A stretch of DNA of 64,000 nucleotides from a virus (Duplodnaviria > Heunggongvirae > Uroviricota > Caudoviricetes): the IMG/VR virus record IMGVR_UViG_3300000553_000006, positions 1-64,000 of that record. The stretch is one strand, 5' to 3'. Below the pieces are notes generated by a model that ran no database searches, was not told the DNA's origin, and worked only from the letters and a program-made list of their open reading frames with translations. The first letter of the stretch is position 1; every line of letters starts with the position of its first letter. Shown here piece after piece: positions 15,269 to 57,170 of this stretch. A program made the position numbers and the translations under genes.

Positions 15269-15293
15269 AGGGATTTCCTTTTCCAACTCTCTC

Positions 15294-31791: not shown

Positions 31792-32076
31792 CTAATGCCA
31801 CTCCGGATTATAATCGTCATCGAAATCGACGATGCCTAATGGTTCATCGTCAGGATCGGAATATCGTTCTTCCATCTTTTCGAAATATCCATCAGAGACA
31901 CCTGTCTTAATTCTCTCAAGCTGTTGTTGACCTTGAGGCGTAGCCATGTGTTTCTTTTGATCAATGCGTCGACGTTCCTTTAACTCAGGAGTGTATGTCC
32001 TTGAGTTAGCACATTTCCTGCTACAGAATTTGCCAGGTCTATCGTGCTCTGTTTCGCATTTTGGACAGATTTTCAT
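31792..32076 (-). CDS. zinc-finger protein
   Basis: CPKCETEH...CSRKC. Confidence 0.4.
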   Translation of the reverse strand: MKICPKCETEHDRPGKFCSRKCANSRTYTPELKERRRIDQKKHMATPQGQQQLERIKTGVSDGYFEKMEERYSDPDDEPLGIVDFDDDYNPEWH

Positions 32077-32897
32077 TTTATGATTCTGAATGCAAAGCTC
32101 TCGTTGTTTCTACGACCGACAAACTCGAAAGAATATCCTGTCTTTTCAAGAAACTCGATGAATGCTTTACCCTCATGTCTAAAGTTCTCGCCAGACAATC
32201 CACCATGAATATCGTAAATCTCATCAAATACCATGATAGCGCCAGGATGAATCAGATCACGTTCAATAAATTTATTGAGAATGAAAGATGTAGATGAATA
32301 GAGATCAGCATCCAAATGAACAAATGAAACAGGATAGGTTGAATACTTATTGATGAACTCATCAAGAGTGTCTTCAAACAATCCAACAATCAGTTCTACG
32401 TTCTGCGGAACAACAGGCAGCTGGTCTTGAGCAAACTTTCCCTTATCATTACCAGCTTTCCAGTCTTCAGGAAGTCCAGTAAAGCAATCAAAGCCGAACA
32501 CCTTACGTTGAGGAACAGCGTTAGCAATGATATTGATAGATGTACCTTCACCAACTCCAAACTCAAACATCAAACCACCCTGTGGAGCAATCTTTGCTGC
32601 ATATGCTAGACTATCTGGGTGTGGTGGCGGAAAGCCGGTTAGAAGATCAATAAGCTTTTGTTCTTGCGGACTAATTTGTTGCTCTTTCTTCTCTTCAGCG
32701 TAAAGAGCGTTTCCATATTCATGTCCAATCACGTAAACCAACTCTCCTGTTGGGATCTTTCTTAGACCTTCAGGAGTATTCATAAAGGCTGAGCAAAGTT
32801 TACCACCAACTGACGAGAAGATAATGTTCTCATGCGCCCAAGCAGGGATGTCTTCATACGTAAGTTTATCTGGATCCCAAACAAATTCAAACTTCAT
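32073..32897 (-). CDS. TylF/macrocin-O-methyltransferase-family SAM-dependent methyltransferase
   Basis: FEFGVGEGTS...VFGFDCFTGLPE and IMVFDEIYD blocks typical of class I sugar O-methyltransferases. Confidence 0.55.
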   Translation of the reverse strand: MKFEFVWDPDKLTYEDIPAWAHENIIFSSVGGKLCSAFMNTPEGLRKIPTGELVYVIGHEYGNALYAEEKKEQQISPQEQKLIDLLTGFPPPHPDSLAYAAKIAPQGGLMFEFGVGEGTSINIIANAVPQRKVFGFDCFTGLPEDWKAGNDKGKFAQDQLPVVPQNVELIVGLFEDTLDEFINKYSTYPVSFVHLDADLYSSTSFILNKFIERDLIHPGAIMVFDEIYDIHGGLSGENFRHEGKAFIEFLEKTGYSFEFVGRRNNESFAFRIIK

Positions 32898-33583: not shown

Positions 33584-34238
33584 CAGCAGATTCTGTAAAT
33601 CTTAGATAGTTTCTTTTTCCATCATTATACCATTTTCTTCCAGTGAGATAAGAATAATCGATATTCTTTCTAGCATCAGAAAGTTTTTTGCAAGTTTCTA
33701 GAGAAGGTTTCTTACCTTTATGAGATAAACTATTTTTCTTTCTTTGATCCTCAGTTAGTTTTCTTCCTGTGTTTGCAACACTTATTTTTCTTTTATGTTC
33801 ATCAGAAAAAATTTTACCTTTATTTGCAGCATTACCTATGCTTGCTTTTGCTATTTTGTCTTTTGTTTCTTGAGATTGTTTAAATCCTGGAATTCTATAG
33901 AAATCTTTGGCTCCATTTGATTTATTGAGCCAAAGATTTGATTTAGCTGCATTAAGTTTTCTTAATACAGCGTTTTCCCAAAATAAACATTTTTCCTTTG
34001 ATGTAAATGTCTTTCTGATTTCTATCACATCAGGCTCACCATATTGGTGTCTAAATGCAGCAACAACCTTTGAAGAAGTGAAATACGTTACCCAAAGATC
34101 GCTTGGGTTCGCTGTTTTGTTAAATTGGGCGCCATAATACCACTTATTGTGATTGCGCCAACCTATAAGGTATGTGTATGGGACATAAATAGTCATAGCT
34201 GGTTCTCCTCGTAGAACTAGAGCCTGGGGGAAGTGCAA
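33549..34238 (-). CDS. GIY-YIG homing endonuclease (seg-like) with NUMOD3 repeats
   Basis: YVPYTYLIGWRNHNKWYYGAQ; SQETKDKIAKASIGN repeats. Confidence 0.65.
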   Translation of the reverse strand: MHFPQALVLRGEPAMTIYVPYTYLIGWRNHNKWYYGAQFNKTANPSDLWVTYFTSSKVVAAFRHQYGEPDVIEIRKTFTSKEKCLFWENAVLRKLNAAKSNLWLNKSNGAKDFYRIPGFKQSQETKDKIAKASIGNAANKGKIFSDEHKRKISVANTGRKLTEDQRKKNSLSHKGKKPSLETCKKLSDARKNIDYSYLTGRKWYNDGKRNYLRFTESADGSWNIGRIHV

Positions 34239-35626: not shown

Positions 35627-35892
35627 TAGAACCTGCTATGTTTGGTTGGATAGAAATAGCCATACCATTCTCGACGAATAGCCCAGCGACGATACCTCCA
35701 AGAACGATACACCTTACGGAATTTACGCTTGCGAGACCAGTAGAGACCATCTAGTTTCTTATAATTACCAAGAGAAAAATATCCTGAAGTCCAGTAATGT
35801 TTCGGGAACTTCAGTTTATAGTCGTGAAAACTCAGAAAGCCGTTAGACTTACTGCCGGCAGAAGTAAAATAGTAACGAGAAGTCTCTTTCAT
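35626..35892 (-). CDS. extremely basic aromatic-rich small protein
   Basis: 88 aa, WSRKRKFRKVYRSWRYRRWAIRREWYGYFY. Confidence 0.4.
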   Translation of the reverse strand: MKETSRYYFTSAGSKSNGFLSFHDYKLKFPKHYWTSGYFSLGNYKKLDGLYWSRKRKFRKVYRSWRYRRWAIRREWYGYFYPTKHSRF

Positions 35893-36257
35893 CAGTCCGC
35901 TTGTCTCGTCAAAAATGTCTTTCGAATACGAACAGGATTGAAGAAGTGTTCAACAACATTAACAGCAACGTCGATGTCATATTCTTTACAAGAGAAGATA
36001 TCAATATACCCTTCCTGAGTCCAATCGTTAAAATGGGCAATGATATTGCTTGTTTCAATTAATTGGATTACTGTCCACCCCTCTAAATGTCTTTCATTAT
36101 GTCCAAAATGGATAACTTGTGGCTCGCCAAAAGGAACCATTTCAATTTCTTCTACAAGAGCTTTTACCCATTCTTTCAATACATCTGGATTTGTAATCGC
36201 TTCTTTATCGCAACCACTACAATCCAAAATTAGGTGGTAACCCCAGTATGACATCAA
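35892..36257 (-). CDS. S-adenosylmethionine decarboxylase, SpeH-like pyruvoyl proenzyme
   Basis: GYHLILDCSGC...LIETSNIIAHFNDW...DIFSCK matches the class 1b AdoMetDC pattern, including an internal serine at the expected self-cleavage position. Confidence 0.6.
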   Translation of the reverse strand: MMSYWGYHLILDCSGCDKEAITNPDVLKEWVKALVEEIEMVPFGEPQVIHFGHNERHLEGWTVIQLIETSNIIAHFNDWTQEGYIDIFSCKEYDIDVAVNVVEHFFNPVRIRKTFLTRQAD

Positions 36258-36971: not shown

Positions 36972-37439
36972 ATGATTATATATGATCCTATCGCAACCTT
37001 TCTTGGTGTAACACCATGTTACGTAGATTACGATAATCTACCAATAACTCCATCTAATCATACTCACAATCCTCTTTGGTTACGTCCGGGTGGATGGAAA
37101 CATGATGATGAAGCGAAGAAAAAGATGAGTAAAGCTAAGAAAGGTAAACCAGGACCAAAGAAATCTAAAGAAACAAAGCAAAAAATGGGTGAATCACATA
37201 GAGGTATACCAAGACCAGATGTTAGTCTTCTCCATAAAGGTAAAATCTTATCTGATGAGACAAAAGAAAAGATTAGAATAGCGAGAGCTAAACAAATTTC
37301 ACAACCACATAATGAAGAAACTAAGTTAAAAATATCTTTAGCAAAGACAGGCAAAAAGCGCAAACCTTTTACCGAAGAGCACAAAAGAAAGATGAGTGAG
37401 TCAGCTAGAATTCGCCGACTGAAGTCATCAAATTCTTAA
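36972..37439 (+). CDS. NUMOD3-repeat DNA-binding protein (homing-endonuclease-derived; no clear catalytic domain)
   Basis: Repeated KxKxSxAxxGK blocks; shares the conserved HE leader. Confidence 0.55.
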   Translation: MIIYDPIATFLGVTPCYVDYDNLPITPSNHTHNPLWLRPGGWKHDDEAKKKMSKAKKGKPGPKKSKETKQKMGESHRGIPRPDVSLLHKGKILSDETKEKIRIARAKQISQPHNEETKLKISLAKTGKKRKPFTEEHKRKMSESARIRRLKSSNS

Positions 37440-38250
37440 GTTTGTGTGTGATAAAATAGTTGAAGAGTTGAGATCTGTCTTTAGCGCCAGGTGGATTATT
37501 GTATTGTTCCAAGATTTCATCTACCAAATTCTGAGGGATCTCATTAAAGTCAATGAGAATTTTATTCCGGTTGTAGTTTCTTAGAGTTTGAGAGTCCATC
37601 GTTTCTTCAGGCTCACCACTCATATATGTAGCTAATCTCTTGGCTGTGATTGGAGTCTGACGGATCTTCTCTACAAAGCTTGAGTCCTTTGAAAGAATGT
37701 TCGGAATACCGTCGTCACCAGCCTTGATGATGTGTTCCTTGAGGTAAGCTTCAGGATTGACACACTTTAACCACTTCTTCAACACAGGATTATACTGTGA
37801 GACATTAGGATACTTCTGAAGTTGTTGGTAGTCCTTGTCTCCTGACAGAATCAAAATCTTGTCAGTGTAGCAGCATTCCTTGGTGATGACTGCGATAATG
37901 TCGTCAGCCTCAGCCTTGTCTACACGAATAACCTTGTAGGGAAAGTAGTCGCGAATCTCATCACGGATCTTGTTCATCATCGTGAAGAACTGATTCCAGT
38001 CCAGAGGCGACTCATCCCGGTCAGTCTTACGGCGAGCCTTGTAATAAGGAAACACATCCTTACGCCAGACGTTACCGCTATCACAGCAAATAACGATCTC
38101 TCCGAACTCTTCTCGGAACTTCAGCCGATTTGCTCGAATCATGTTCAAAATCATATGACGGAGTAGGTCTTCGTCAATATCAGCCTTCTTTCCCTTCAAT
38201 TGAGCCATGAGCGTTGCGATCATGATCTGGGAAAGGTCAATCAATACCAT
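37405..38250 (-). CDS. rnh: RNase H / 5'-3' flap exonuclease (T4 rnh-like)
   Basis: N-terminal LIDLSQIMIATLMAQL resembles T4 RNase H; 281 aa; acidic residues consistent with a FEN fold. Confidence 0.7.
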   Translation of the reverse strand: MVLIDLSQIMIATLMAQLKGKKADIDEDLLRHMILNMIRANRLKFREEFGEIVICCDSGNVWRKDVFPYYKARRKTDRDESPLDWNQFFTMMNKIRDEIRDYFPYKVIRVDKAEADDIIAVITKECCYTDKILILSGDKDYQQLQKYPNVSQYNPVLKKWLKCVNPEAYLKEHIIKAGDDGIPNILSKDSSFVEKIRQTPITAKRLATYMSGEPEETMDSQTLRNYNRNKILIDFNEIPQNLVDEILEQYNNPPGAKDRSQLFNYFITHKLKNLMTSVGEF

Positions 38251-38252
38251 GT

Positions 38253-38594
38253 TTAATCCTCGTTAGATTCCTCGACAATAGTGTCGTAGTATTCGTCAGG
38301 AACGCTGATAATCTTTTCAACGACCTTGTGTAGTGGATGTTCAATTCCAAGACTTCTGTAGATCAGAGAGTTAACAGATTGAACGAGAAGTAGACTGTCT
38401 TTGAAACAGTTCTTCCCACCCACGTTGAAGCCGAACATGTCTAAATTATTGAATAGATCCTCAGTGAGAGTCATCGCAGCAATTTCTGCAGTTTCTTCCC
38501 GTGACATTTTGACTTGTTCTTGTATTTCTTCCAGATTCGGTATCTGGGCTTTAGTGTTCTTAGATGGGAAGAGAACTACGTTATTTGCTGTCAT
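38253..38594 (-). CDS. hypothetical protein
   Basis: 113-aa ORF. Confidence 0.4.
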   Translation of the reverse strand: MTANNVVLFPSKNTKAQIPNLEEIQEQVKMSREETAEIAAMTLTEDLFNNLDMFGFNVGGKNCFKDSLLLVQSVNSLIYRSLGIEHPLHKVVEKIISVPDEYYDTIVEESNED

Positions 38595-39706
38595 TGAAGC
38601 ACCCTCAACAGAAGTGTATCTTGATTGATTCGTCCGTTGAGTTTCGTTTCTGCAGTTTTAACTTCCCCAAGGAGAGAGCGCAAACCAACTTTACCATACA
38701 AATTCACCTTTGGCAGCATGTCCTCAGGTTTACGCAACTTCTTGCCAACTGATGTAGCAGGATCATATCCAGTAATCGTTGTACCCTTTACACTAAATCC
38801 ATTGGGATCGCTCGCTTTGTAGCAACCCAACAATCTATATTTAGTATTATACACCCACAGTTGCTTGGCGCCGATCACCGTTACCGGATCAATTGACGCG
38901 AGCTTGCTTTCGGAGTCAGAGACACAGAACTTCATGTCCTTAACAAGCAGAGCAGCAGGCTTTTGCTTTACTGGACGCGGCTTACGGATCTTCTTCTCAG
39001 CCTTGACCACATTAGACACCTTACCAGCATCCTCAATGATCAGCATAATGAAGTCGAAGTAGGCTTGAAGATCCTTCTTCTTGAACTTCTTGTATCCTTC
39101 CTTGAGTTGAACATCCTTACCTTCAAGAGCGTCAGCAAGCTCAAGCAGGAGAGGTTCATAGCGAAGGATGATCGCGTTGGCTTGAACGTCCTTGACTTCG
39201 TTTGTCTTGAAATAGGTGTAAGGTTCGAAGTCGGTAACGAAATCCATCAGAATGAAGTGATCAATCTCGGCTTCAAGTTCGGCGATGATCTCGTCGGTCT
39301 TTTCCTTGACCTTATCAACGATTCGATACTCAAGCTTCTTCGGCTCTTCTTCAGGAACTCGATACAGATTCTCTTCGACTCGCTTCATGATCTTATCATG
39401 ATACTTGCCGATATCACAGCCGTTGTTGGCCATACGTGCGAGAGCACAGTAAGTCATACCGATGAATTGGGGCTTGATCTTCTTGACCCGATCGATATAC
39501 TTCTTACTGTGACCGTGACGTTCTAGATACGTGTAAAGCCAAGGCGCTGCGTTATCGACATGATACGCATATCCGTACCAAGTGAGCGCGACCGAAACAG
39601 CAGTTTCGCTTTTGACTGTCTTGAGCATGGGTTCGCCGCCGATAAACTTCTTCTCGGCTGCGATATTCTTTGTCTTAGGCTTCTTTGCCATGTTTCCCTC
39701 AATCAA
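38591..39706 (-). CDS. hypothetical 371-aa protein
   Basis: Large ORF, no motif recognised; TTGCCATTAAT promoter at about 39732. Confidence 0.45.
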   Translation of the reverse strand: MIEGNMAKKPKTKNIAAEKKFIGGEPMLKTVKSETAVSVALTWYGYAYHVDNAAPWLYTYLERHGHSKKYIDRVKKIKPQFIGMTYCALARMANNGCDIGKYHDKIMKRVEENLYRVPEEEPKKLEYRIVDKVKEKTDEIIAELEAEIDHFILMDFVTDFEPYTYFKTNEVKDVQANAIILRYEPLLLELADALEGKDVQLKEGYKKFKKKDLQAYFDFIMLIIEDAGKVSNVVKAEKKIRKPRPVKQKPAALLVKDMKFCVSDSESKLASIDPVTVIGAKQLWVYNTKYRLLGCYKASDPNGFSVKGTTITGYDPATSVGKKLRKPEDMLPKVNLYGKVGLRSLLGEVKTAETKLNGRINQDTLLLRVLQ

Positions 39707-39734: not shown

Positions 39735-40334
39735 TTAATGGCAAGCGTGTTTTTCCGCTAGATATTGTGACACGAGATGCATAATCGCTTGATGCATGTC
39801 CTCAACAATACCATAGTTGTGAGCGTCAACGTGAATTGAAATATCAGCCATCATTTTGGCGACACCACCGTTGAATCCAGTTAAAGCTACTGATTTGATT
39901 CCAATTTCTTCAGCACACTCTAATGCTCGGAGAATGTTAGCCGAATTTCCGCTGGAACTAATAACGATAAGAAGGTCTTCAGCGCTGTATGACAGTTTTC
40001 GTAGATAATACGCGATAGATTGATTATAACCGATATCGTTGCTAATCGCAGTCAGCATAGAAACATTGGAAACCAGCGAGATTACTCGTGGTTTTAGATC
40101 GCTCTCGTGGCCGACACCCTTACACACATCACAAACAAGATGGTCAGCGATAGCTGCTGAGCCACCATTACCAGCGACAAAGATGTTTCCGCCTGATTTA
40201 GTTGTATTCTCGATAGCATCTGCAAACGCTTGAATCTTATCCATTTGACTGTCTAGATCTTTAAGTGAAGCGATCAGTCCATACTTGTAGCTAGAGAACT
40301 TCGTAAAAATGTCCATTTTGTTCCTCTGAATCAT
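39735..40334 (-). CDS. gmhA: SIS-domain sedoheptulose-7-phosphate isomerase (GmhA-like)
   Basis: FVAGNGGSAAIADHLVCD matches the GmhA GNGGSAADAQH motif; 199 aa. Confidence 0.7.
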   Translation of the reverse strand: MIQRNKMDIFTKFSSYKYGLIASLKDLDSQMDKIQAFADAIENTTKSGGNIFVAGNGGSAAIADHLVCDVCKGVGHESDLKPRVISLVSNVSMLTAISNDIGYNQSIAYYLRKLSYSAEDLLIVISSSGNSANILRALECAEEIGIKSVALTGFNGGVAKMMADISIHVDAHNYGIVEDMHQAIMHLVSQYLAEKHACH

Positions 40335-41355
40335 ATACTACATCAGCGCCAGGAGCATTGATTCTAAACTCGAATTGCTCAAGCCCGACCGCTTGTCTTA
40401 CTTCTTCTTGTCGCTCGATGGGAACGTAGAATAGGAAAAATCCTCCACCACCTGCACCCAGTAGTTTGCCTCCAAGAGCGCCAGCTTGTATGGCCGAAGC
40501 ATAAGTTCGATCAAAACTCTCATTGCTGATACCTCCAGCTAATTGTTTCTTCAACGACCAGGTCTCATCTAACAGAGACCCAAAGGCGTCATACTCAAAG
40601 TTAATTAGATGATCGGCTGCTCTATATGTGAGTTCAACCATTTCATCAACCAACTTTACCTTTGATTTATCTTTGTTCATTGCAGCTGATTGTTTGGCCA
40701 GAATTGTATCTGCTGACCGAGTTTGGTCCGTGTAGAACATCATCAGATTGTCCGAAAGAACAGTTAGATCGTGCTCAATCGGTGTTCTTGAGAATCCATC
40801 TTTTCTGAATTGAAAGAGATTCGTTCCACCATATGCAGCTGCGAATTGATCTTGATATCCAATTGGCTTCTCACAACGCGAAATCTCAATTTCACATGCT
40901 TTAGATGCCAGAATTCCTCTGTTGAGCTGTTCACCTTCAAACATGTAGTTTAGTCCGTTCAGCAGAGCCACAGCGAACGTAGACGATGATCCAAGACCTG
41001 TTCCGCTCGTTGGCATGTCAGCAAAGGAACCAATCTCGATACCATACTTTACACCATACGCATCAAGCGAATGGCGGACGATATCGTGCTTGAGTAGAGA
41101 TGCGTCGTTGACGATCTCGATCTCTGAATACATAAGTTTGACATGGTGCTTTGGTGTATCGATTAAAGCCAGATACATGTATTTGTCAATAGCAGTGGAA
41201 AGAACCACACCACCTTGCTTTGACTTTAGGAAGTATGAAGGAAGATCGCTACCTCCTCCGAAGAAACTTACCCGTAGAGGTGCTCTTGATAACAGAATCG
41301 TCAAATCTCCTATAACGAAACATAACAAAATGGGTGGAGCCGAAACTCCACCCAT
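40291..41355 (-). CDS. hddA: GHMP kinase, D-glycero-D-manno-heptose-7-phosphate kinase (HddA-like)
   Basis: N-terminal RAPLRVSFFGGGSDLP (HddA/WcbL signature) and GHMP motif MPTSGTGLGSSSTFAVALL. Confidence 0.7.
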   Translation of the reverse strand: MGGVSAPPILLCFVIGDLTILLSRAPLRVSFFGGGSDLPSYFLKSKQGGVVLSTAIDKYMYLALIDTPKHHVKLMYSEIEIVNDASLLKHDIVRHSLDAYGVKYGIEIGSFADMPTSGTGLGSSSTFAVALLNGLNYMFEGEQLNRGILASKACEIEISRCEKPIGYQDQFAAAYGGTNLFQFRKDGFSRTPIEHDLTVLSDNLMMFYTDQTRSADTILAKQSAAMNKDKSKVKLVDEMVELTYRAADHLINFEYDAFGSLLDETWSLKKQLAGGISNESFDRTYASAIQAGALGGKLLGAGGGGFFLFYVPIERQEEVRQAVGLEQFEFRINAPGADVVYDSEEQNGHFYEVL

Positions 41356-41362
41356 CAGTTAA

Positions 41363-41794
41363 TTAGGTAACTGGACCGAATACAATTTCACCAGTTGCTG
41401 CAGCTGCTGCACCGACAGTAATAGTACCTGTGGCAGTAATTGGGGCTTCACCAACAGTTTCAGTTGCTTGAGCAACGACTGTAACAGTGACTGACCCAAC
41501 TCCGGCTGGAGCGAATGATGCTGATAGACCATCTGGAGCAACAGTTGGAGTTACAACACCGTCAGCTGATAGTGTCCAAACTGGAGCACCAAATACTGAG
41601 GCTTGATTACCCTTTTTGTCCTTGAAGGCTAGTGTGGCGCTTACGCCATTGTCGTCTAGTTTAAGTACTGCTTCTGACATGTTCTTTCCTTTATAGTTAG
41701 AGAATACAATTTCCATGTCATCGTAGACAGGGAATCTTTCATGTGCAATCCAACCAAGAAACAGGAACAGTAGAATAAGGTCAAAGATTAGCAT
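41363..41794 (-). CDS. membrane-anchored Ig-like domain protein
   Basis: N-terminal TM helix, then a Thr/Val/Ala-rich beta-strand pattern typical of bacterial Ig-like folds. Confidence 0.45.
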   Translation of the reverse strand: MLIFDLILLFLFLGWIAHERFPVYDDMEIVFSNYKGKNMSEAVLKLDDNGVSATLAFKDKKGNQASVFGAPVWTLSADGVVTPTVAPDGLSASFAPAGVGSVTVTVVAQATETVGEAPITATGTITVGAAAAATGEIVFGPVT

Positions 41795-41822
41795 AACAGA
41801 TCCTCCTGGTTGTCAACATTAT

Positions 41823-42836
41823 TTAGGCAGTCCGGAAACTGAATGTTGGCTTTGGGAAGGAAAGATCAGCATCTTTATATTGCTCATAGAGACCAAAGAT
41901 CAATTGTTCCCAACGAGGACCAATGTTATCCCATGAGAAACGAGCGTCAGCATAGTTCGAAATAAACTTCAGATGGTTCTGAATGTTCTCTTGTTGAACA
42001 ATACCAACCGCTTGACTCAGAGCTTGATAGAAGATGTTGGCGTGTTGATTAATGTCTTGTACGTAATCATACTGGAAAGTCATACCTCCAGCTGTATCTG
42101 GCAGAGCACCAAAGTTTGGGTGAACACACAGAACGCCAGCCATCATCGCCTCAATCAGAGTACGACAGGAAGTTTCTGGCCAGATGTTAGGATAAGCCAA
42201 AATGTGTGCTTTAGACACTGCTTCGCGAACAACCTCTTGTTCTTGAAACCCATGATAGTTGATTTGTGTGTGCTGTCTACAACGCTCATAGAGCTCTTCA
42301 AATTCAGCATCACGTTGGTCCCAACCATAGATCTTGAATGAAGAGAACACATCAAGAATTACATTTGGATTGTTCTTAGCAAGTTCTTCAAAAACTGGAA
42401 CCAGAATTTGTAGACCACGATGCGGAGTTGAGAAATAGATCAGACGAACAGTTCCTGTCCTATCCTTTTCTGTATTCAGAGAACGAAAAGAATCAACGCC
42501 TGTTTCAATAACAGTCGACTGAGAATCAAACGGAACACCGAGATAGTCTCGGAATTGTTGATACTGCCAATTGCTTGAAAAGACCAACTTATGAAAGCGA
42601 TTACGTTTGTTGGGATCCTTCAAATGCTGTGATTCTGGATCGTTGGCCAGATCATGCAGGTGAAGAACTCGAATCCTATTCTCATCAAGTTCACGCACAC
42701 GTGAGGTGATAATCTGAAACTTGTCCAGCTTATCCGATACGTTTGCGGAGTTTTCTAGGATTCGTTGTAGAGCGGTAGTAGTAAGTTCCGTACCACCCTT
42801 ACTGTTTTGGTTTAATTCATTACGCGAAAATGTCAT
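41823..42836 (-). CDS. GT-B glycosyltransferase (group 1-like)
   Basis: C-terminal ETSCRTLIEAMMAGVLCV resembles the GT1/GT4 E-x7-E donor-binding block. Confidence 0.55.
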   Translation of the reverse strand: MTFSRNELNQNSKGGTELTTTALQRILENSANVSDKLDKFQIITSRVRELDENRIRVLHLHDLANDPESQHLKDPNKRNRFHKLVFSSNWQYQQFRDYLGVPFDSQSTVIETGVDSFRSLNTEKDRTGTVRLIYFSTPHRGLQILVPVFEELAKNNPNVILDVFSSFKIYGWDQRDAEFEELYERCRQHTQINYHGFQEQEVVREAVSKAHILAYPNIWPETSCRTLIEAMMAGVLCVHPNFGALPDTAGGMTFQYDYVQDINQHANIFYQALSQAVGIVQQENIQNHLKFISNYADARFSWDNIGPRWEQLIFGLYEQYKDADLSFPKPTFSFRTA

Positions 42837-43162: not shown

Positions 43163-43459
43163 TTAGCTTAGATTTACGTCAAATCCAAGAACACTGTCCT
43201 TGCGGAAAGAGCGCCAGTTTTCCTTTTCTAGGTCCCAAACAACAAGAATGTCATCATTTGGCTTACGTCCTGATTCAGTCAGTTGATCAGCACGACCCAG
43301 ATCGCGTAGAATTTCAGCAATTAGAGTGTTGTCTTGAGTACAACACATGTTACGAACGCTTCCGTCAGCCTTCGTAAACTTTACCCAAACAGGACCCATA
43401 CCAAGGTAATGCTTGAGAGTATCGATACCGTTATTCGTTGAGGAGTTGTCTTGGACCAT
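43163..43459 (-). CDS. hypothetical protein
   Basis: 98-aa ORF. Confidence 0.4.
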   Translation of the reverse strand: MVQDNSSTNNGIDTLKHYLGMGPVWVKFTKADGSVRNMCCTQDNTLIAEILRDLGRADQLTESGRKPNDDILVVWDLEKENWRSFRKDSVLGFDVNLS

Positions 43460-43685
43460 TGTCTAGGAACCTTTCACGGAGTTGGGCGAAGCCGCCGACA
43501 TATTCGTTATCTAGAAAGATCTGAGGAACAGACCTAGCGTGGGGAAGAACCTCAAACAGAAGATTACGATTGTTATCTTCTTCGATATTGACTTCTTCGT
43601 AAGAAATACCCCTGCTATCTAGCAATTGCTTAGCAGAGATACAGAACGGACAAGCGTTCTTCGTGTAGATTAATGCTCTACTCAT
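43431..43685 (-). CDS. glutaredoxin (NrdH/T4 NrdC-like)
   Basis: CPFC active site, 84 aa. Confidence 0.75.
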   Translation of the reverse strand: MSRALIYTKNACPFCISAKQLLDSRGISYEEVNIEEDNNRNLLFEVLPHARSVPQIFLDNEYVGGFAQLRERFLDNGPRQLLNE

Positions 43686-43920
43686 ATTGTACCTCTAATT
43701 CGTGACCGAGTTTTTCAAAGATCAACCGGAATACCTCATCTTGACTATAGGAAGTACCTCCGAAACAATGTGCCGAAGGTGCAAGATCGATGATTTCAAC
43801 TCCATCGAAATAAATTTTAGCACCTTCAGCACTGCTTCCTCCGCAAGTATCACAGTCAAAATAATCTGACAACCAATCAATCTTAACCTTCATTATATAG
43901 TCACCCTGTATTAAAGTCAA
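43678..43920 (-). CDS. hypothetical protein
   Basis: 80-aa ORF. Confidence 0.4.
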   Translation of the reverse strand: MTLIQGDYIMKVKIDWLSDYFDCDTCGGSSAEGAKIYFDGVEIIDLAPSAHCFGGTSYSQDEVFRLIFEKLGHELEVQYE

Positions 43921-44046: not shown

Positions 44047-44069
44047 GGCTGGGTCCGAACGACCCAGCC
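44047..44069 (-). terminator. stem-loop GGCTGGGTC-CGAAC-GACCCAGCC with flanking T-runs (possibly bidirectional)
   Basis: Perfect 9-bp GC-rich stem between tRNA-Trp and the downstream gene. Confidence 0.45.
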
Positions 44070-44142: not shown

Positions 44143-44216
44143 TGGCATGGGTACTAAGAGTCGAACTCAGGCTTACAGTTTTGGAGACTGTCGTGCTACC
44201 GTAACACTTTACCCAC
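44143..44216 (-). tRNA. tRNA-Trp (CCA)
   Basis: Anticodon arm ACAGT-CTCCAAA-ACTGT, T-loop GAGTTCGACTC, encoded CCA. Confidence 0.7.
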
Positions 44217-44526
44217 ACATGTATTTCTTATTTTTACCAGCGTATGTCTCAGTTTGAGAATGGCAGTTAGGACAAAGAAAGGTTAAATTATCTAATCTAT
44301 TGTCGTTATTTACACCATTCTTGTGTTCTAACTGAAGAGAAATAGATTTCCCATTCCACTCATCAGAAAGTCCGCAATCTGAACAAACATAATCTATCAG
44401 TTTTTGCTTAATTACTCTTTCTTTTAACCTATGTCTAGGATAATTTGAATTTTCAACAAAAACAGTATCATTAGAAAATTTTCTACTAGCTGCAGATAAT
44501 AGCAACCCTTGTATATTTCTTGGCAT
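44209..44526 (-). CDS. HNH endonuclease
   Basis: CSDCGLSDEW...HKNGVNNDNRLDNLTFLCPNCH; minus-sense TATAAATA late box at about 44550. Confidence 0.7.
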   Translation of the reverse strand: MPRNIQGLLLSAASRKFSNDTVFVENSNYPRHRLKERVIKQKLIDYVCSDCGLSDEWNGKSISLQLEHKNGVNNDNRLDNLTFLCPNCHSQTETYAGKNKKYMCG

Positions 44527-44583
44527 AAGCTATCTCCTCTTTAGAGATATTTATATACCGTCGGTTCTAAGAACCGAAGAAAA

Positions 44584-44658
44584 TGGTGGAGGATAAGGGA
44601 ATCGAACCCTTGCTTCATGCTTGCAAAGCACGAGTGCTACCATTATCACCAATCCCCC
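44584..44658 (-). tRNA. tRNA-Ala (UGC)
   Basis: Anticodon arm CGTGC-TTTGCAA-GCATG; G3.U70 identity pair present; CCA. Confidence 0.7.
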
Positions 44659-44664
44659 ATTATA

Positions 44665-44740
44665 TGGTGCCGCAACGAGGAATCGAACCCCGGACATCCT
44701 GCTTACAAGGCAGGCGCTCTTCCAACTGAGCTATTACGGC
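44665..44740 (-). tRNA. tRNA-Thr (UGU)
   Basis: Anticodon arm CCTGC-CTTGTAA-GCAGG; D-arm GCTCAGTTGGAAGAGC; CCA. Confidence 0.75.
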
Positions 44741-44787
44741 ATAATTACTCTTTATTTATAAATATCTAAGCAGCTAAGGAGAAGAAT

Positions 44788-45147
44788 ATGATTGAACATA
44801 TCGAAAAAATCAACACAAAGATCGCACTTACGGTAACAGATGTCGTAGGTACAATGTGGTGCGCGTATATTTTCGCAGTTCTAGCAGTACTCAGTCTTCC
44901 TACAGCTATTGCTGGTGGTATCGCAACTCTAATTTCTTGGGTCGCTCAAACTTTCCTTCAACTCGTACTTCTATCAGTCATCATGGTTGGACAACGTATT
45001 CAAAGCGAGAGAACTGAGAAGCGAGACGAAGAAGATCACGTAACCATCATGAACGAATTCGCAGAAATTAAACAAATGCATAACGAAATAAAAGAAATCT
45101 TGGCTCTTGAAAAGCAAGATGCTGCTCAAGAGAAGCGTGGAGTCTAG
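44788..45147 (+). CDS. membrane protein
   Basis: 119 aa, two TM helices; TATAAATA late box at 44757..44764 and an AAGGAGA RBS. Confidence 0.55.
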   Translation: MIEHIEKINTKIALTVTDVVGTMWCAYIFAVLAVLSLPTAIAGGIATLISWVAQTFLQLVLLSVIMVGQRIQSERTEKRDEEDHVTIMNEFAEIKQMHNEIKEILALEKQDAAQEKRGV

Positions 45148-45154
45148 AGAGTAT

Positions 45155-45230
45155 TGGAGTGCACGACAGGATTCGAACCTGCATTAAACTGAGTTGCAAT
45201 CAGTTGACTAACCATTCATACCACGTGCAC
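45155..45230 (-). tRNA. tRNA-Cys (GCA)
   Basis: Anticodon arm ACTGA-TTGCAAC-TCAGT; acceptor GTGCACG/CGTGCAC; CCA. Confidence 0.7.
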
Positions 45231-45810
45231 GTAATTTTCTATATCTTAATCCTTTACTCCATCCCGTCATATTTAGGAATTCTTCTTCAGTTACCATTTT
45301 AGATTTCTGCAAATCATCATTAGAAACCCAAAATTTACCTTTACTGTGATGATGTTCTAACAGTTTTTTAGAAAGTGCTGGACCATTTTTCCTATTAATT
45401 TCAGTCATCTTTTCACAAAACTTGTCACGATATGACTGATCAATTTTGATTCTATTCCCGTGAATTAAATGTTGATCAACTTTATGATTTAATCCAAATT
45501 TATTCACATAATAGAAATTTGCAGGTCCACCCAATTTTACATTATACACATCATTTCTATCTAAAAATTCTTCCGTTACTAATTCTATTTCTCTATCATA
45601 CATATTTTCTTCAGTATCAAACCACTCTATAATTTCTTTAGAAAAATTCTCAATTCCATACTTTTTTATAGCAGATTTAATACCTTTTCCAGATCCCATA
45701 TATCCATCATCTATATTAGAAGTTTTATGGACCCCAACATATATTTTGCCGTTCAGTCTATTTCTAATTTGATATAGATAGTAATACATAAGAATCTCCA
45801 TTCTCTTCAT
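45208..45810 (-). CDS. GIY-YIG homing endonuclease
   Basis: YYYLYQIRNRLNGKIYVGVHKT...DGYMGSG; its stop overlaps the 5' end of tRNA-Cys; late box at about 45822. Confidence 0.75.
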   Translation of the reverse strand: MKRMEILMYYYLYQIRNRLNGKIYVGVHKTSNIDDGYMGSGKGIKSAIKKYGIENFSKEIIEWFDTEENMYDREIELVTEEFLDRNDVYNVKLGGPANFYYVNKFGLNHKVDQHLIHGNRIKIDQSYRDKFCEKMTEINRKNGPALSKKLLEHHHSKGKFWVSNDDLQKSKMVTEEEFLNMTGWSKGLRYRKLRARGMNG

Positions 45811-45848
45811 TACTATTTATATAAACGCAGACCGTTACCTAGAAGATA

Positions 45849-45923
45849 TGGCACCCACATCCAGAATCGAACTGGAATCGACCGTTTAGAAGACGGTAGC
45901 TCTGTCCGTTGAGCTATGCGGGC
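45849..45923 (-). tRNA. tRNA-Arg (UCU)
   Basis: Anticodon arm ACCGT-CTTCTAA-ACGGT; CCA. Confidence 0.7.
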
Positions 45924-45929
45924 TCAAAA

Positions 45930-46004
45930 TGGTACTGGAGCCCAGAATTGAACTGGAGACTCAGGGGACACAATCCTGCATTTTACCAATTAAACTACTC
46001 CAGC
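45930..46004 (-). tRNA. tRNA-His (GUG), probable
   Basis: Anticodon loop TTGTGTC in a CAGGA/CCCTG stem with one mismatch; CCA. Confidence 0.55.
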
Positions 46005-46202
46005 TCACTCTTGATCAATAACCAGATAGCAAAATCTATGAACAATATCGAAAGACTCGATTACCTTAATCGCGCGCTCATCGTTTGCTTTTGCTTTCAC
46101 ATGTAGATCAAGAATATAATCTCGTAGACGAAAAAAATTGTAAGCATCTTGGAGAAGATCACCAAGATCCAGAACTTGTTCAACAGTCACATTCTGTTTC
46201 AT
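46005..46202 (-). CDS. hypothetical protein
   Basis: 65-aa ORF. Confidence 0.35.
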   Translation of the reverse strand: MKQNVTVEQVLDLGDLLQDAYNFFRLRDYILDLHVKAKANDERAIKVIESFDIVHRFCYLVIDQE

Positions 46203-46211
46203 AATATATCC

Positions 46212-46826
46212 TTAAAGAGTCTTTCGACCTTTATTATAACCTAGTGCCAAATAATAATCAAGCTGTTCTTTTTTAATTTTAAGAATACGTTGTCCATTAT
46301 TTATCCAACAAGTACCAAATTGAGAATTTTTAGATCCTTTTTGGTGTTCTTTTTCGTGCAAAGTATTTTTTCTTTTTAATTTGGCATCTTCAGTATTGGC
46401 AAATAATGAAGCAATCTTTATATTATTCTTTCTAGCTCTTAGTTTATTTTCACTTTCAATTTTAAGATTTAATTTATTCAATTTTCCTGAAATTTTTCCA
46501 CCCAATCTATATGCTTCAATAGGAACCAATCCATTTGCATTGATATACCCAAATCCACCTTTACCACCAGGACATAGATTATAGGTATCCTCTCGTGTAC
46601 AAAACTCTTCGGTAACCAATTCTTTCTCTTTAGCATTCATTTCTTCTTCCGAATCAAATACAAAGAGAATTTCTTTAGTAAACTTATCTAATCCATATTT
46701 CTTTTGGGCTCTACGTAATGATTGACCAGAACCCATATATCCATCATCCAAATCTTTTGTTTGATGTTTACCAATATAGATTTTGTTGTTTACAGAACAA
46801 GTAATTTTGTAGATAGTATAAAACAT
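46212..46826 (-). CDS. GIY-YIG homing endonuclease, paralog of 6332..6955
   Basis: MFYTIYKITCSVNNKIYIGKHQTKDLDDGYMGSG. Confidence 0.8.
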   Translation of the reverse strand: MFYTIYKITCSVNNKIYIGKHQTKDLDDGYMGSGQSLRRAQKKYGLDKFTKEILFVFDSEEEMNAKEKELVTEEFCTREDTYNLCPGGKGGFGYINANGLVPIEAYRLGGKISGKLNKLNLKIESENKLRARKNNIKIASLFANTEDAKLKRKNTLHEKEHQKGSKNSQFGTCWINNGQRILKIKKEQLDYYLALGYNKGRKTL

Positions 46827-46833
46827 ATTAGTG

Positions 46834-46883
46834 TCCCAGGAAATATAGAAAGGTCTTAGTATGCCTATTTATATTTCCTGGGA
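46834..46883 (-). promoter_or_regulatory. leader hairpin (14-bp perfect stem) upstream of the GIY-YIG gene
   Basis: Arms TCCCAGGAAATATA/TATATTTCCTGGGA around the same conserved loop as at 6926..6965; contains a minus-sense TATAAATA. Confidence 0.55.
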
Positions 46884-46889
46884 CTGAAG

Positions 46890-46979
46890 TAGTCCTGCTA
46901 GGACTCGAACCTAGATCGTTCACCCGTCCGGTGATCATGCCTTATAAGGACACCGCTCTGCCAATTGAGCTACAAGACT
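46890..46979 (-). tRNA. type II tRNA with 22-nt variable arm, anticodon reads UAU as folded; no encoded CCA
   Basis: Acceptor AGTCTTG/CAGGACT, D-arm GCTC-AATTGGCA-GAGC, anticodon arm GTGTC-CTTATAA-GGCAT (2 G.U), T-arm CTAGG-TTCGAGT-CCTAG. Confidence 0.5.
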
Positions 46980-46987
46980 ACATAATT

Positions 46988-47072
46988 TGGTGCGAATGAG
47001 AGGACTCGAACCTCCACCCCTTTCGGGACTGGTTTCTAAGACCAGCGCGTCTACCAATTCCGCCACACTCGC
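46988..47072 (-). tRNA. tRNA-Leu (UAG)
   Basis: Anticodon arm CTGGT-CTTAGAA-ACCAG, long variable arm, CCA; 85 nt. Confidence 0.75.
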
Positions 47073-47186
47073 ATTATTTTCCGTCTAGTAAAAGACAAAG
47101 AAAGCCTACTATCCAAACCCAAAGTGGCGCATTATAGTGCCAACATACCAGAAAGCCAAAAATAGCAAGCATTTCTCATCCTCAAA

Positions 47187-47262
47187 TGGTGCCGACGGCA
47201 GGGATCGCACCCGCATCTGCTGGGTTTCAACCAGCCGCTAAGACTACATCAGCTACGACGGC
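47187..47262 (-). tRNA. tRNA-Phe (GAA)
   Basis: Anticodon arm GCTGG-TTGAAAC-CCAGC; CCA. Confidence 0.65.
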
Positions 47263-47269
47263 GTAATAT

Positions 47270-47346
47270 TGGAAGGGGATACGGGACTCGAACCCGCATT
47301 AGTGGATTGAAAGTCCACTGTCCTAGTCCAATTAGACGAATCCCCC
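47270..47346 (-). tRNA. tRNA-Glu (UUC)
   Basis: Anticodon arm GTGGA-CTTTCAA-TCCAC; T-loop GGTTCGAGTCC; CCA. Confidence 0.7.
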
Positions 47347-47669: not shown

Positions 47670-48527
47670 TTACACTCGAATCCTCTTTTTAATTTCCTCG
47701 AAAGACTCATCCTTAACAAGTTTACCATCAAGATAGACAGTTTCAAGACAATCGTTGGCATCGTGATTGCTTTCAAGAGTGAACCAATTGTGTCCATCTT
47801 GACGCAGAACCAGTCGACCCTTCTTGCTCTTCTTGCCAGGATCAGTAATCGGATCCTTGGCGATAGCAAGATCCTTACCATTCACACGAATGTTGCTCGC
47901 CTTGAACGCAAACTTATTCGTGTCTCGATTGATATCGACTTGCATCAGACCACCGCCTGAACCAGTCATAATCGAATCAGCAGAGATATGCATGTCTAGA
48001 GCAATCTGGAACGGAACAGCCACAGTGTCTTCGTTGATACCGTCACCCCACAGAACCTTGACGTTGTTCAGAACTTTGTATCCCTTGTTATTCCGAGTGA
48101 AGCCAAAGCCCTTCTCAAGAATAGCCAGGACTTGAGGAAGAACAACCTCAATATCGCCGCTGTCAGGACGAACGACGAGAGTGATATTCTTCTCGACGAT
48201 CTTATCCTTCAGAGACACCCACTTACGAGCCGCATCGTAGATGTTCCAAGTGTCCGAAACAACAGACAGAATAGAACCAGGTTCAGCGACATCAACCAGA
48301 CGTTCGAACGAAGCAAGTTCGTTCTCTTGACCGTAGCTACACATGATGCTGTGTTCAGTAGCAGCCACGGAGTAACCCATGATCTTACCACCATACAGCT
48401 TACGAACCCAGTCGATAGCAGACATACTGTCCGAACCGGCGAAGTTCAGTAGATGCGCAGCACCACCGATCTGATTGCTCTCGAAAGAAGAGCAGCGATG
48501 GCTCCGATAGAAGCAATCTTTCTCATA
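47670..48527 (-). pseudogene. nadV: nicotinamide phosphoribosyltransferase (NadV/Nampt) C-terminal portion, N-terminal ~180 aa missing
   Basis: GGAAHLLNFAGSD...GYSVAATEHS...RPDSGD...KGRLVLRQDGHNW aligns with Nampt residues ~185-480 from memory; an in-frame TAA at 48528..48530 separates it from an unrelated low-complexity ORF. Confidence 0.55.
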
Positions 48528-48821
48528 TTACCAGCTCCCCGACGATCCGCCGGCGGCGGTCGAGCCGCCATCGCCAGAAAAATCACTGCTGCTGCCAGAG
48601 TCATAACTCGGACCCGGATCATAGCTAGGAGTAGACATACTGTCTATAATCGATTCAGCAACAATAACAGAAGCCATTGTACTAGCGAAAGAATCATCGC
48701 TAGAAACATAAGTATCGTCCGAAGTCCTCGTCCGATTCCTCTCAACCAGCTGCCAAGGATGGTTCTTCTTGAAAAGAGACTTCTTAATTTCACCAGTGAT
48801 AGAGTGCTTGTATTCATACAT
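48528..48821 (-). CDS. Ser/Asp/Gly-rich low-complexity ORF (same frame as the nadV fragment)
   Basis: 97 aa, GC-rich low-complexity DNA; may be non-functional. Confidence 0.3.
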   Translation of the reverse strand: MYEYKHSITGEIKKSLFKKNHPWQLVERNRTRTSDDTYVSSDDSFASTMASVIVAESIIDSMSTPSYDPGPSYDSGSSSDFSGDGGSTAAGGSSGSW

Positions 48822-49149
48822 GATATTTAGTTTTCCCTAGTAAAGTTCAGCGAGAATGCTGTCTGCCCAATCAAACCAATCGAGCTCTTCACGCTCGACC
48901 TTTTCGTTGTTACGGATCTTCCGCATAATCTCGCAGTACTTAGCCTGCATGGCTAAGAACCCTTGTTCGATCATCGGAAACTTAAAGACTTTGATATCCA
49001 TCTCAATCCCTCCTACAACGGTTACATACTTAGTATACCGTCAGGATGAATTAATAGCAAGTCCCAAAATTATTTTTTTGATATAAATAGAATGCTAGTC
49101 GCGGACTGCCATCCCACTAGCTCTAGTCCTCGTTCAAAGAGCCCAGCAC

Positions 49150-55747: not shown

Positions 55748-55802
55748 CTCCTATTAGATCATCTATTTATAAATTGCTTACGCTTGATTACATTAATCAT
55801 CT

Positions 55803-57169: not shown

Positions 57170-57170
57170 A

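Follow-up and report, generated by a model that had tools for sequence, protein, structure and literature searches.

What does a T4-like bacteriophage do with two enzymes of early heptose synthesis and a glycosyltransferase, carried together in the region of its replication and nucleotide-metabolism genes? The question is raised by four genes between positions 39,735 and 42,836 of the tailed-phage (Caudoviricetes) record IMGVR_UViG_3300000553_000006 of IMG/VR, of which positions 1 to 64,000 were analysed (hereafter the window). An original prediction, made from the DNA letters without database searches, had read these genes as a GmhA isomerase, an HddA heptose-7-phosphate kinase, a membrane-anchored immunoglobulin-like (Ig-like) protein and a GT-B glycosyltransferase (GT). 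The comparisons reported here identify the block as a pared-down version of a modular sugar cassette which, judging by gene order in other genomes, occupies one fixed site between glutaredoxin/WYL_2 and RNase H. The carriers are T4-like phages of environmental bacteria, mostly freshwater, marine and soil.

Results

Layout and identity of the cassette genes

A check of the open reading frames (ORFs) of the window placed all four cassette genes on the minus strand (Table 1), and their common orientation and tight packing, with the coordinates and motifs quoted in the original prediction, were all confirmed. The stop codon of an upstream ORF of 55 amino acids (aa) overlaps the ATG of the GT gene (ATGA), 28 nt separate the GT gene from the Ig-like gene, and the kinase and isomerase genes overlap by 26 nt; the GT is predicted to be translationally coupled to its neighbouring genes. 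The window as a whole is that of a T4-like phage, encoding RNase H, DNA and RNA ligases, a primase, NrdA/B, ThyX, deoxycytidine monophosphate (dCMP) deaminase and PhoH, together with many homing endonucleases and 14 tRNAs.

The GT matches Pfam Glycos_transf_1 (E = 1e-9, 38.6 bits; cut-off 26.4) and contains an EX7E motif (ETSCRTLIE) in which E221-x7-E229 is invariant or nearly so in 21 homologues. It is predicted to be soluble and acidic, with an isoelectric point (pI) of 5.8. Its AlphaFold (AF2) model is confident, with a predicted local distance difference test score (pLDDT) of 87.7, and a Foldseek search of the PDB with this model returned glycogen synthase, PimA, BshA, SdgB and HepE at a probability of 1.0, with TarM also near; the closest solved structures are retaining GT4/GT5 enzymes. 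The Pfam match, the confident model and the fold matches together uphold the GT-B assignment. Searched against the PDB as a single sequence, the GT found no match, and as a profile it found only starch synthase, at E = 0.28; the fold searches led only to general GT4/GT5 relatives, which give no pointer to donor or acceptor. A GT9 (WaaC/WaaF-type) enzyme was also considered; no family match of this type was found in Pfam or NCBIfam, and neither WaaC nor WaaF is among the top 50 PDB matches.

The kinase ORF is open from ATG 41355, but this codon falls within a hairpin (41356-41329) and the homologues start MILTRAPLRV, so that TTG 41301 is the likely start. The protein matches GHMP_kinases_N (1.5e-12, 48 bits) and GHMP_kinases_C (4.4e-7, 30.6 bits) of Pfam, both over cut-off, and its translation contains the motifs RAPLRVSFFGGGSDLP and PTSGTGLGSSS. 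Its best NCBIfam match is HddA (NF049969), at 114.8 bits and hence under the 600-bit equivalog cut-off, and its closest solved structure is the heptokinase WcbL (4usm, 1e-34 by phmmer). Residues R13, D22, S118-120, Q162 and D163 of WcbL are essential by mutation (PMC4691232), and in the phmmer alignment to 4usm the window kinase is identical at every one of them. Galactokinase and mevalonate kinase were rejected as identities, their models being 45-85 bits weaker, and fucokinase also scored much lower. The kinase appears nearest to HddA/WcbL. It is 47% identical to a Novosphingobium kinase (P0048) which lies beside an HddC-GmhB fusion and itself scores only 168.8 bits on NF049969 (cut-off 600).

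The isomerase ORF is open to 40334, and its most likely start is ATG 40316, as called on the identical metagenome contig L003. Its translation contains the motif GNGGSAAIADH and matches Pfam SIS_2 (E = 3.7e-21, 76 bits; cut-off 27). The top four NCBIfam matches are all gmhA/phosphoheptose isomerase, with DiaA, MurQ and HxlB lower, and the top 13 sequences in the PDB are all phosphoheptose isomerases (best 1x94, 2e-23). Its 104.6 bits on TIGR00441 (gmhA) are below the equivalog cut-off of 209.45 bits; the Novosphingobium SIS copy, which stands in a complete pathway cluster, also falls below it (109.3 bits), which argues that the cut-off excludes the whole subfamily. In E. coli GmhA numbering the window enzyme shows the changes E65D, T120S, Q172E and E173D and a deletion of D169, and it keeps H61, H180, S55, D94, S119, S121 and S124. 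This residue pattern of a divergent SIS subfamily is common to every phage copy examined and to the Novosphingobium pathway copy, and solved GmhA structures also vary at E65 (PMC7705670). Arabinose-5-phosphate isomerase was rejected as an identity, no KdsD-type match being present among the NCBIfam or PDB matches. By these comparisons the enzyme would be nearest to GmhA and not a generic isomerase. The GmhA and HddA assignments of the original prediction were thus sustained by the best NCBIfam and PDB matches, which are GmhA and HddA/WcbL and not a generic isomerase or galactokinase.

The cassette in other phages

A scan of IMG/VR with an alignment of the kinase found at least 551 contigs that encode a relative of it. 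Among the best 80 loci, about 74 have a SIS gene, about 64 a window-type GT, about 60 RNase H, about 55 an epimerase and about 45 a small nucleotidyltransferase. Accessory genes were classed at 41 non-redundant loci with enough flanking sequence, the window included. Nucleotidyltransferase and epimerase occur together at 21 of these, the epimerase only at six, the nucleotidyltransferase only at six, a GmhB-like gene at three, and nucleotidyltransferase, epimerase and a TylF-like methyltransferase at one (L068); the window itself has the TylF-like gene only, and three loci (L073, L104 and L002, the last being the same phage as the window) have none of these accessories. The small nucleotidyltransferase is present at 31 of the 41 loci. 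In NCBIfam the accessory proteins of the relatives lie nearest to rfaE domain II, GmhB/histidinol phosphatase and GalE, and at L053 and L058 all four pathway activities are encoded together, the gene order being nucleotidyltransferase, GmhB-like phosphatase, epimerase, GT, kinase, isomerase.

Among long uncultured phage contigs, L011 has between WYL_2 and RNase H, in this order, a CTP_transf-like nucleotidyltransferase, epimerase, GT, kinase and SIS; in L013 and L014 the genes that lead up to RNase H are epimerase, GT, kinase and SIS, then those for proteins of 380 aa and 113 aa. The nearest relative, L104, has the same minimal triad as the window, its GT being 66% and its kinase 65% identical. 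WYL_2 and glutaredoxin lie upstream of the GT in phiM12, L011, L013, L014, L104 and many IMG/VR loci; in Cr30 and DLP_6 glutaredoxin is the only upstream marker. On the downstream flank, p371 has a homologue directly after the GT in phiM12 (gp314) and further homologues in Cr30 (gp005), L013, L014, L027 and L047; it is absent from L011-type and most other cassette loci. A p113 homologue accompanies the p371 type in phiM12 (gp313), L013, L014 and, likely, L102, and Cr30, L027 and L047 have the p371 type only. We take p371 as context of the site rather than as an established member of the pathway.

Caulobacter phage Cr30 (NC_025422), which is T4-like, has glutaredoxin, GT, kinase, isomerase, p371 homologue and RNase H in the same order and orientation as the window, with identities of 47% for the GT, 37-39% for the kinase, 44% for the isomerase and 30% for the p371 homologue, a 365-aa hypothetical protein. 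A small ORF lies between its kinase and isomerase genes. Unlike the window, Cr30 has a nucleotide-sugar epimerase gene adjoining the GT and, beyond RNase H, a heptose-1-phosphate adenylyltransferase-like gene (gp178); unlike Cr30, the window has the Ig-like gene inserted. Outside its cassette Cr30 (L106) is also annotated with a cytidyltransferase (32055-32861), a nucleotidyltransferase (48563-49528) and an inositol-1-phosphate synthase (54208-55389), and these extra genes suggest further sugar or polyol metabolism in the phage group.

Median identity across the cassette loci is 50.6% for the GT, 48.2% for RNase H, 45.4% for the kinase and 44.3% for the isomerase. The GT has 2556 homologues at E <= 1e-10, with 51-69% identity among the 120 matches listed, and is present without kinase and isomerase in phiM12, Stenotrophomonas phage DLP_6 and L102/L103. 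Sinorhizobium phage phiM12 has the order glutaredoxin, WYL_2, GT, p371 homologue, small ORF and RNase H; L102/L103 share this arrangement, free of heptose genes, and their GT is 62% identical to that of the window. By this pattern the GT is the ancestral and best-conserved gene of the site, and the heptose genes are add-ons.

The phage itself has no close cultured relative, since no DNA-level match longer than 365 bp was found in phage records: megablast of the window against 50,697 records gave no match, and the sole match of a sensitive blastn search of the same records was a 365-bp stretch of the Cr30 GT gene. On all six contigs, each from a different metagenomic sample, GT and Ig-like protein show 100% identity, and the kinase ORF is intact wherever it is complete. 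The identity of the GT proteins on short contigs from six samples indicates a phage that is uncultured and recurrent.

Later pathway genes and cellular relatives

Searches of the window by tblastn with the nucleotidyltransferase and epimerase of L011 and with the Novosphingobium HddC-GmhB fusion found none of them. Profile hidden Markov models (HMMs) made from 38, 56, 2 and 6 relatives were run on all 693 six-frame ORFs of the 64 kb, and for nucleotidyltransferase, epimerase, HddC and GmhB no profile match was better than E = 0.05. A NT5C-type HAD protein (10237-10719) was considered as GmhB and rejected; it is of the deoxyribonucleotidase type and has no match to the GmhB profile. The original prediction, which had recognized neither GmhB nor HddC, was correct in this respect. 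As far as homology can tell, the complete four-activity pathway to a nucleoside diphosphate (NDP)-heptose is not in the 64-kb window, which holds the isomerase and kinase only. PADLOC matched no defence-system family to any cassette protein.

A TylF/Methyltransf_24-like O-methyltransferase is encoded elsewhere in the window (Table 1), and the suggestion that it could methylate the cassette sugar gains some support from its homologues, which lie inside the cassettes of L068 (46% identity) and L092 (41%), between nucleotidyltransferase and epimerase. It is plausibly a displaced accessory of the cassette.

Members of the kinase subfamily occur widely among bacteria and archaea. At 68 cellular loci of at least 9 kb the kinase has as neighbours an HddC-type gene (49 loci), a GmhB-type gene (48), a gene of the same SIS subfamily (48), an SDR epimerase/dehydratase (45) and a small cytidylyltransferase-like enzyme (only two). 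In Novosphingobium it adjoins the HddC-GmhB fusion and the SIS gene, in a cluster for surface polysaccharide that also includes GTs, methyltransferases and an ABC exporter. These neighbourhoods support a heptose-type route via the 1,7-bisphosphate for the subfamily.

A further observation concerns the pairing of enzyme classes. The phage loci combine a GHMP kinase of the alpha-pathway type with a small RfaE-domain-II/HldC-like nucleotidyltransferase of the beta-pathway type, at 31 of 41 loci as against 2 of 68 cellular ones, which shows that the phages have swapped the class of nucleotidyltransferase.

The inserted Ig-like gene

The gene between GT and kinase has its own AGGAGG ribosome-binding site, 8 nt upstream. 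Hydropathy of its 143-aa product shows a single hydrophobic N-terminal segment, peaking at residues 1-19, and a single-sequence AF2 model gives a helix at residues 2-20 (pLDDT about 85) followed by nine low-confidence strands (mean pLDDT 52). The protein itself has no match in Pfam even at E = 10 and none in NCBIfam or PHROG, a word-indexed homology search found nothing, and the model was too poor for a fold search. An exhaustive HMMER search gathered a family of at least 382 small proteins, many of which are 105 aa long and begin where Met39 of the window protein would align, while in several an N-terminal transmembrane helix is clear. Weak Ig-type matches occur in 4 of 38 family members scanned (three to Invasin_D3, one to Big_2), and the family profile matches the PDB only at E = 0.12, to a Big_2-like surface protein. 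The transmembrane anchor of the original prediction is therefore backed by hydropathy and homologues, whereas its Ig-like part has the weak matches and the low-confidence model; 'membrane-anchored Ig-like' is a plausible description.

The family (P0241-P0390) comes in two forms, a 105-aa beta domain alone and a form of 145-165 aa with an N-terminal transmembrane helix, the long form often having an RRRKP-type basic cluster after the helix, followed by an in-frame Met that immediately precedes the domain; the two forms hint at dual starts or at a domain facing the cytoplasm.

When run against about 100 cassette-bearing loci, the family profile matched this phage alone, and L104, the nearest relative, has no gene between GT and kinase, whose coding sequences overlap there. 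Absence from the other loci and the direct overlap point to a phage-specific insertion, and the gene is best regarded as an independent, lineage-specific one that lies outside the pathway. The idea that this neighbour is the acceptor of the GT was rejected on the same ground, the protein being unique to this phage among cassette loci.

Expression signals

A sigma-70-like promoter, preceded by a terminator-like hairpin, heads the unit that leads into the GT gene (Table 1). The T4 late-promoter consensus TATAAATA occurs 13 times in the window against 2.7 expected, and not once between 34269 and 44547. With the sigma-70-like promoter and no late motif in the unit, expression of the cassette is most likely early or middle.

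Minus-strand copies of TATAAATA lie at 6229, 34261, 44548, 45814, 46866, 55764, 57779 and 62424. Six of them stand just upstream of homing-endonuclease-like genes, namely NUMOD3 (33549-34238), HNH-like (44209-44526, 55160-55747 and 57171-57746) and GIY-YIG (45208-45810 and 46212-46826) genes, which suggests late expression of these selfish elements.

Table 1. Positions and assignments of features at and around the cassette site
Feature	Position	Strand	Basis or remark
TylF/Methyltransf_24-like O-methyltransferase	32073..32897	-	Pfam; ~7 kb from cassette
RNase H	37405-38250		Downstream flank marker
p113 (113 aa)	38253-38594		Downstream flank marker
p371, basic (pI 9.3)	38591..39706	-	PHROG 11903, no Pfam; downstream flank of cassette site
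GmhA-like SIS-domain sedoheptulose-7-phosphate isomerase (predicted), 193 aa	39735..40316	-	SIS_2, gmhA models
HddA/WcbL-like GHMP sugar-phosphate kinase, 336 aa from TTG	40291..41301	-	Pfam, NCBIfam, PDB WcbL
Intrinsic-terminator-like hairpin, 12 bp stem, T-rich tail	41329..41356	-	GATGGGTGGAGTTTCGGCTCCACCCATT then TTGTTATGTT; directly after Ig-like gene
Small protein, 143 aa, N-terminal hydrophobic anchor and putative Big_2-like beta domain	41363..41794	-	Hydropathy, family matches, model
Retaining GT4-like GT-B glycosyltransferase, 337 aa	41823..42836	-	Pfam, PHROG 2170, fold model
WYL_2 protein	43163-43459	-	Upstream marker of cassette site
Glutaredoxin	43431-43685	-	Upstream marker of cassette site
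Sigma-70-like promoter (TTGACT, 17 nt, TATAAT)	43892..43920	-	Heads unit p71-glutaredoxin-WYL_2-p53-p55-GT
Terminator-like hairpin	44047-44069		Upstream of sigma-70-like promoter

Other features of the window

A homing endonuclease gene lies between nrdA and nrdB (52184-52846), and ThyX (56498-57169) is flanked on both sides by HNH endonuclease genes (region 55160-57746). In the corresponding place, with nrdA on one side and the primase gene on the other, Cr30 has a ThyA-type thymidylate synthase, which indicates that the type of thymidylate synthase has been swapped. A tRNA cluster at 44143-47346, holding 10 of the 14 tRNA genes of the window, is interleaved with GIY-YIG endonuclease genes; one clustered tRNA, with the anticodon TAT, was called tRNA-Ile. 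Host-like accessory genes encode an S-adenosylmethionine decarboxylase (35892-36257) and a nicotinate phosphoribosyltransferase-family protein (47670-48425), and further host-like genes a papain-like cysteine protease (26188-26955), an SPFH/Band 7 protein (1788-2540) and a von Willebrand A-domain protein (55803-56498). The stretch 14200-16300 forms a GC-rich island, with a GC content of 0.52-0.57 in surroundings of about 0.42, and its ORFs, on both strands, are all short and overlap one another; it gave no Rfam family, no blastn match in the phage records and, for the one ORF scanned, no Pfam match.

Discussion

Function of the cassette

Family-level gene identities, conserved catalytic residues, synteny and the absence of later pathway genes from the window were established directly. 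Our working reading, to which we give a probability of roughly 40%, is that the cassette serves early production of heptose-1,7-bisphosphate, which is completed elsewhere and feeds a GT with a conserved acceptor, preferably an envelope precursor. Early in infection the unit would be transcribed from its sigma-70-like promoter. For the mechanism and ALTERNATIVES, homology and context make it probable that the isomerase turns host sedoheptulose-7-phosphate into heptose-7-phosphate and that the HddA/WcbL-like GHMP kinase then phosphorylates O1 to give heptose-1,7-bisphosphate, which by analogy with HddA would be the alpha anomer. Removal of the 7-phosphate and nucleotide activation would fall to host enzymes (GmhB and a nucleotidyltransferase) or to phage genes beyond the 64 kb. 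The retaining GT4 enzyme would move the activated sugar, without inversion of the anomeric centre, to an acceptor conserved across phages of different hosts. The preferred candidate is an envelope precursor on the cytoplasmic face, such as the conserved inner core of lipopolysaccharide (LPS) or another lipid-linked glycan, and the outcome may be a remodelled surface of the infected cell by which, for example, superinfecting phages are excluded or progeny are kept from adsorbing to debris. The substrate, the anomer, heptose as the donor of the GT, the completion of the pathway and the acceptor are what we infer from the homologies and gene neighbourhoods.

Among possible acceptors we rank the envelope first, a protein of the phage itself second and DNA third; a small-molecule product or uncoupled functions are also possible. 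The envelope is placed first because the cellular homologues lie in surface-glycan clusters with ABC transporter/export genes, because expression is early, because the GT is an acidic enzyme of the PimA/WaaG-like peripheral type, because no modified-base chemistry is seen, and because the heptose/LPS genes of T4-like cyanophages and pelagimyophages have been read as LPS-modifying (PMC7029224, PMC7378029).

Several findings weigh against this reading. Both isomerase and kinase fall far below the equivalog cut-offs (105 against 209 bits and 115 against 600 bits), and the conservative changes E65D and Q172E, at proposed catalytic/zinc positions, mean that the substrate could be a different ketose phosphate. 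With neither nucleotidyltransferase nor phosphatase in the window, alpha-heptose-1-phosphate would need an HddC-type enzyme, which is absent from many hosts. That phiM12, DLP_6 and L102 have the GT but no heptose genes argues that the donor need not be heptose, and the epimerase of the relatives, which is GalE-like (258 bits, cut-off 262), hints at a uridine diphosphate (UDP)-hexose. The terminator-like hairpin splits the GT and Ig-like genes from those of kinase and isomerase. In phages of Caulobacter, Stenotrophomonas and Sinorhizobium, moreover, the GT matches RNase H in its degree of conservation, which would suit an acceptor intrinsic to the phage more than a host glycan that varies.

That last point leads to glycosylation of the phage's own proteins, in which the GT would heptosylate a conserved virion or assembly protein and the heptose genes would supply the donor. 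Mycobacteriophage GTs decorate capsid and tail proteins. Conservation of the GT at the level of a core gene, at a fixed locus and in phages of unrelated hosts, is what a phage-encoded acceptor would lead one to expect, a single GT implies simple monoglycosylation, and the conserved p371 follows the GT directly in phiM12. Yet the unit has no late promoter and lies within the early replication/nucleotide-metabolism region, and no acceptor candidate co-varies with the GT, p371 being missing from most loci and the Ig-like protein unique; we consider this explanation unlikely. A broader form of the idea takes the conserved GT and its variable sugar-supply genes as a widespread system of phage-self glycosylation, which would place an (O-methyl-)heptose on a virion protein or on DNA by a hybrid alpha-kinase/HldC-like route, with the minimal-triad phages finishing the sugar through host enzymes or by a route without a dedicated nucleotidyltransferase. 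In this wider form it is speculative and on balance doubtful.

The splitting of the unit and the heptose-free loci count also for an uncoupled arrangement, in which the GT uses a host NDP-hexose while isomerase and kinase act alone, either draining sedoheptulose-7-phosphate or making heptose-1,7-bisphosphate, or in which a heptose phosphate is the acceptor of the GT, as may be compared with GlgM, sucrose-phosphate synthase, MshA and BshA. L104 and L073 likewise have the minimal triad and no nucleotidyltransferase, the epimerase of the relatives is of the same GalE-like character as noted above, and many of the top fold matches of the GT glycosylate small phosphorylated metabolites. A nucleotidyltransferase of the heptose-1-phosphate type at 31 of 41 loci, at some together with a GmhB-like phosphatase, points instead to an NDP-heptose donor, and kinase and isomerase stand beside a window-type GT, often with overlapping genes, at about 64 of the best 80 viral loci. 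Uncoupled action is, in our estimate, less likely still than protein glycosylation. The same minimal set could be a decaying remnant whose heptose genes make no useful product, the epimerase and nucleotidyltransferase having been lost and the operon interrupted: the window does lack the epimerase, nucleotidyltransferase and phosphatase found in most relatives, and an inserted gene with a terminator does split the operon. But the kinase and isomerase ORFs are intact with all key residues kept, the kinase ORF is also intact, where complete, on the other metagenome contigs of this phage with their identical GT and Ig-like proteins, and the minimal triad is kept in L073 and in L104, which is only 65-66% identical, implying selection. 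Decay is very improbable on this evidence.

Hypermodification of DNA, the third-ranked acceptor, would make the cassette the heptose counterpart of the RB69/DLP3 arabinose pathway, with the GT glycosylating a modified base. The logic of the two pathways is the same, the RB69/DLP3 arabinosyltransferases are close in fold to the same GT-B enzymes (PimA, MshA, sucrose-phosphate synthase) (PMC13326640), and heptosyl-5-hydroxymethylcytosine (5hmC) has been made in E. coli from a phage gene cluster (bioRxiv 2023.12.21.572611); the genes are also early and among those of nucleotide metabolism, like the T4 glucosyltransferases. The window gave the idea, raised in the original prediction, no support: it has ThyX and dCMP deaminase, and among about 55 window ORFs scanned (64 kb) no hydroxymethyl-pyrimidine enzyme was found, ThyA-like hydroxymethylase, dCTPase, C5-methyltransferase and TET being absent. 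In Cr30 the thymidylate synthase keeps L143 and N177, the canonical residues of the deoxyuridine monophosphate (dUMP) type, and the annotation of the 124 kb examined lists no DNA-modifying enzyme. Cr30 is a generalised transducer. The GT, finally, is acidic, its top 50 fold matches in the PDB and among viral models do not include T4 beta-GT, and a cyanophage 'DNA alpha-GT' comes in no higher than rank 40. We therefore regard DNA as an improbable acceptor.

The survey sharpens the question with which we began, since in a large T4-like clade the GT is kept at core-gene level at one site and the heptose-supply genes vary around it, isomerase and kinase nearly always present and nucleotidyltransferase, phosphatase, epimerase and methyltransferase in changing combinations. 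Caulobacter crescentus, the host of Cr30, is genetically tractable, so that the question is directly testable. The answer may be a remodelled surface, glycosylated virions or a heptose counterpart to arabinosyl-DNA, and whichever is true would apply to hundreds of uncultured phage lineages.

Comparison with known systems

The window enzymes share their folds with the GmhA and HddA/WcbL families, lie nearest to them and keep the WcbL catalytic residues; the GmhA/HddA route, however, also uses GmhB and HddC, neither of which the window has, and both window enzymes score under the curated equivalog thresholds. A survey of NDP-heptose biosynthetic enzymes across kingdoms (Tang et al., Science 2024, as summarised in PMC11461863 and PMC11573728) reportedly described an isomerase, a kinase and a heptose nucleotidyltransferase of viruses and found no viral phosphatase. 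Compared with that survey, the window differs in being without a nucleotidyltransferase, and some of its relatives differ in having a GmhB-like phosphatase. The sequence RDHGFSTT in the L011 nucleotidyltransferase agrees with the motif R-x-x-G-x-STT ('STTR5') that is tied there to the synthesis of cytidine diphosphate (CDP)- and UDP-heptose.

The arabinosyl-5-hydroxy-cytosine route of RB69 and DLP3 runs by way of an SIS isomerase and a C1 kinase, then a HAD phosphatase resembling GmhB and a nucleotidyltransferase, to a GT4-like GT-B enzyme (PMC13326640), and in E. coli the 'contig 53' cluster (kinase/phosphatase, cytidylyltransferase, GT-B) decorates 5hmC with mono- and di-heptose (bioRxiv 2023.12.21.572611). 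The RB69/DLP3 route has the same design as the cassette: its genes are early, belong to T4-like phages and start from a sugar phosphate of the pentose phosphate pathway. The differences are that RB69/DLP3 and contig 53 carry a dCMP-modifying ThyA homologue, or a C5-methyltransferase with TET, none of which was seen in the window, and that their kinases are APH-like whereas the window kinase is of the GHMP type.

Closest in gene content and position are cassettes already on record. In Cr30, gp006-gp010 of the block gp005-gp011 have been annotated since 2014 as phosphoheptose isomerase, D,D-heptose 7-phosphate kinase, glycosyltransferase and epimerase. The cyanophage SynMITS9220M01 has been described with heptose genes (PMC7378029), and in it and in S-SM2 and P-TIM68, all T4-like, kinase, isomerase, epimerase and small nucleotidyltransferase are annotated as in the cassette, although the cyanophage kinases are only about 25% identical to that of the window and lie in other genome regions. 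The original prediction knew of no heptose module in a T4-like replication region; the Cr30 annotation, SynMITS9220M01, the hundreds of IMG/VR contigs and the viral heptose-pathway enzymes reported by Tang et al. take that novelty away. Its alternative, that the cluster is a standard conserved block of known function in related phages, holds for the conservation and not for the known function. The window cassette is a reduced copy of a kind of cassette already annotated in Cr30 and in cyanophages, and as such it leaves existing knowledge unchanged.

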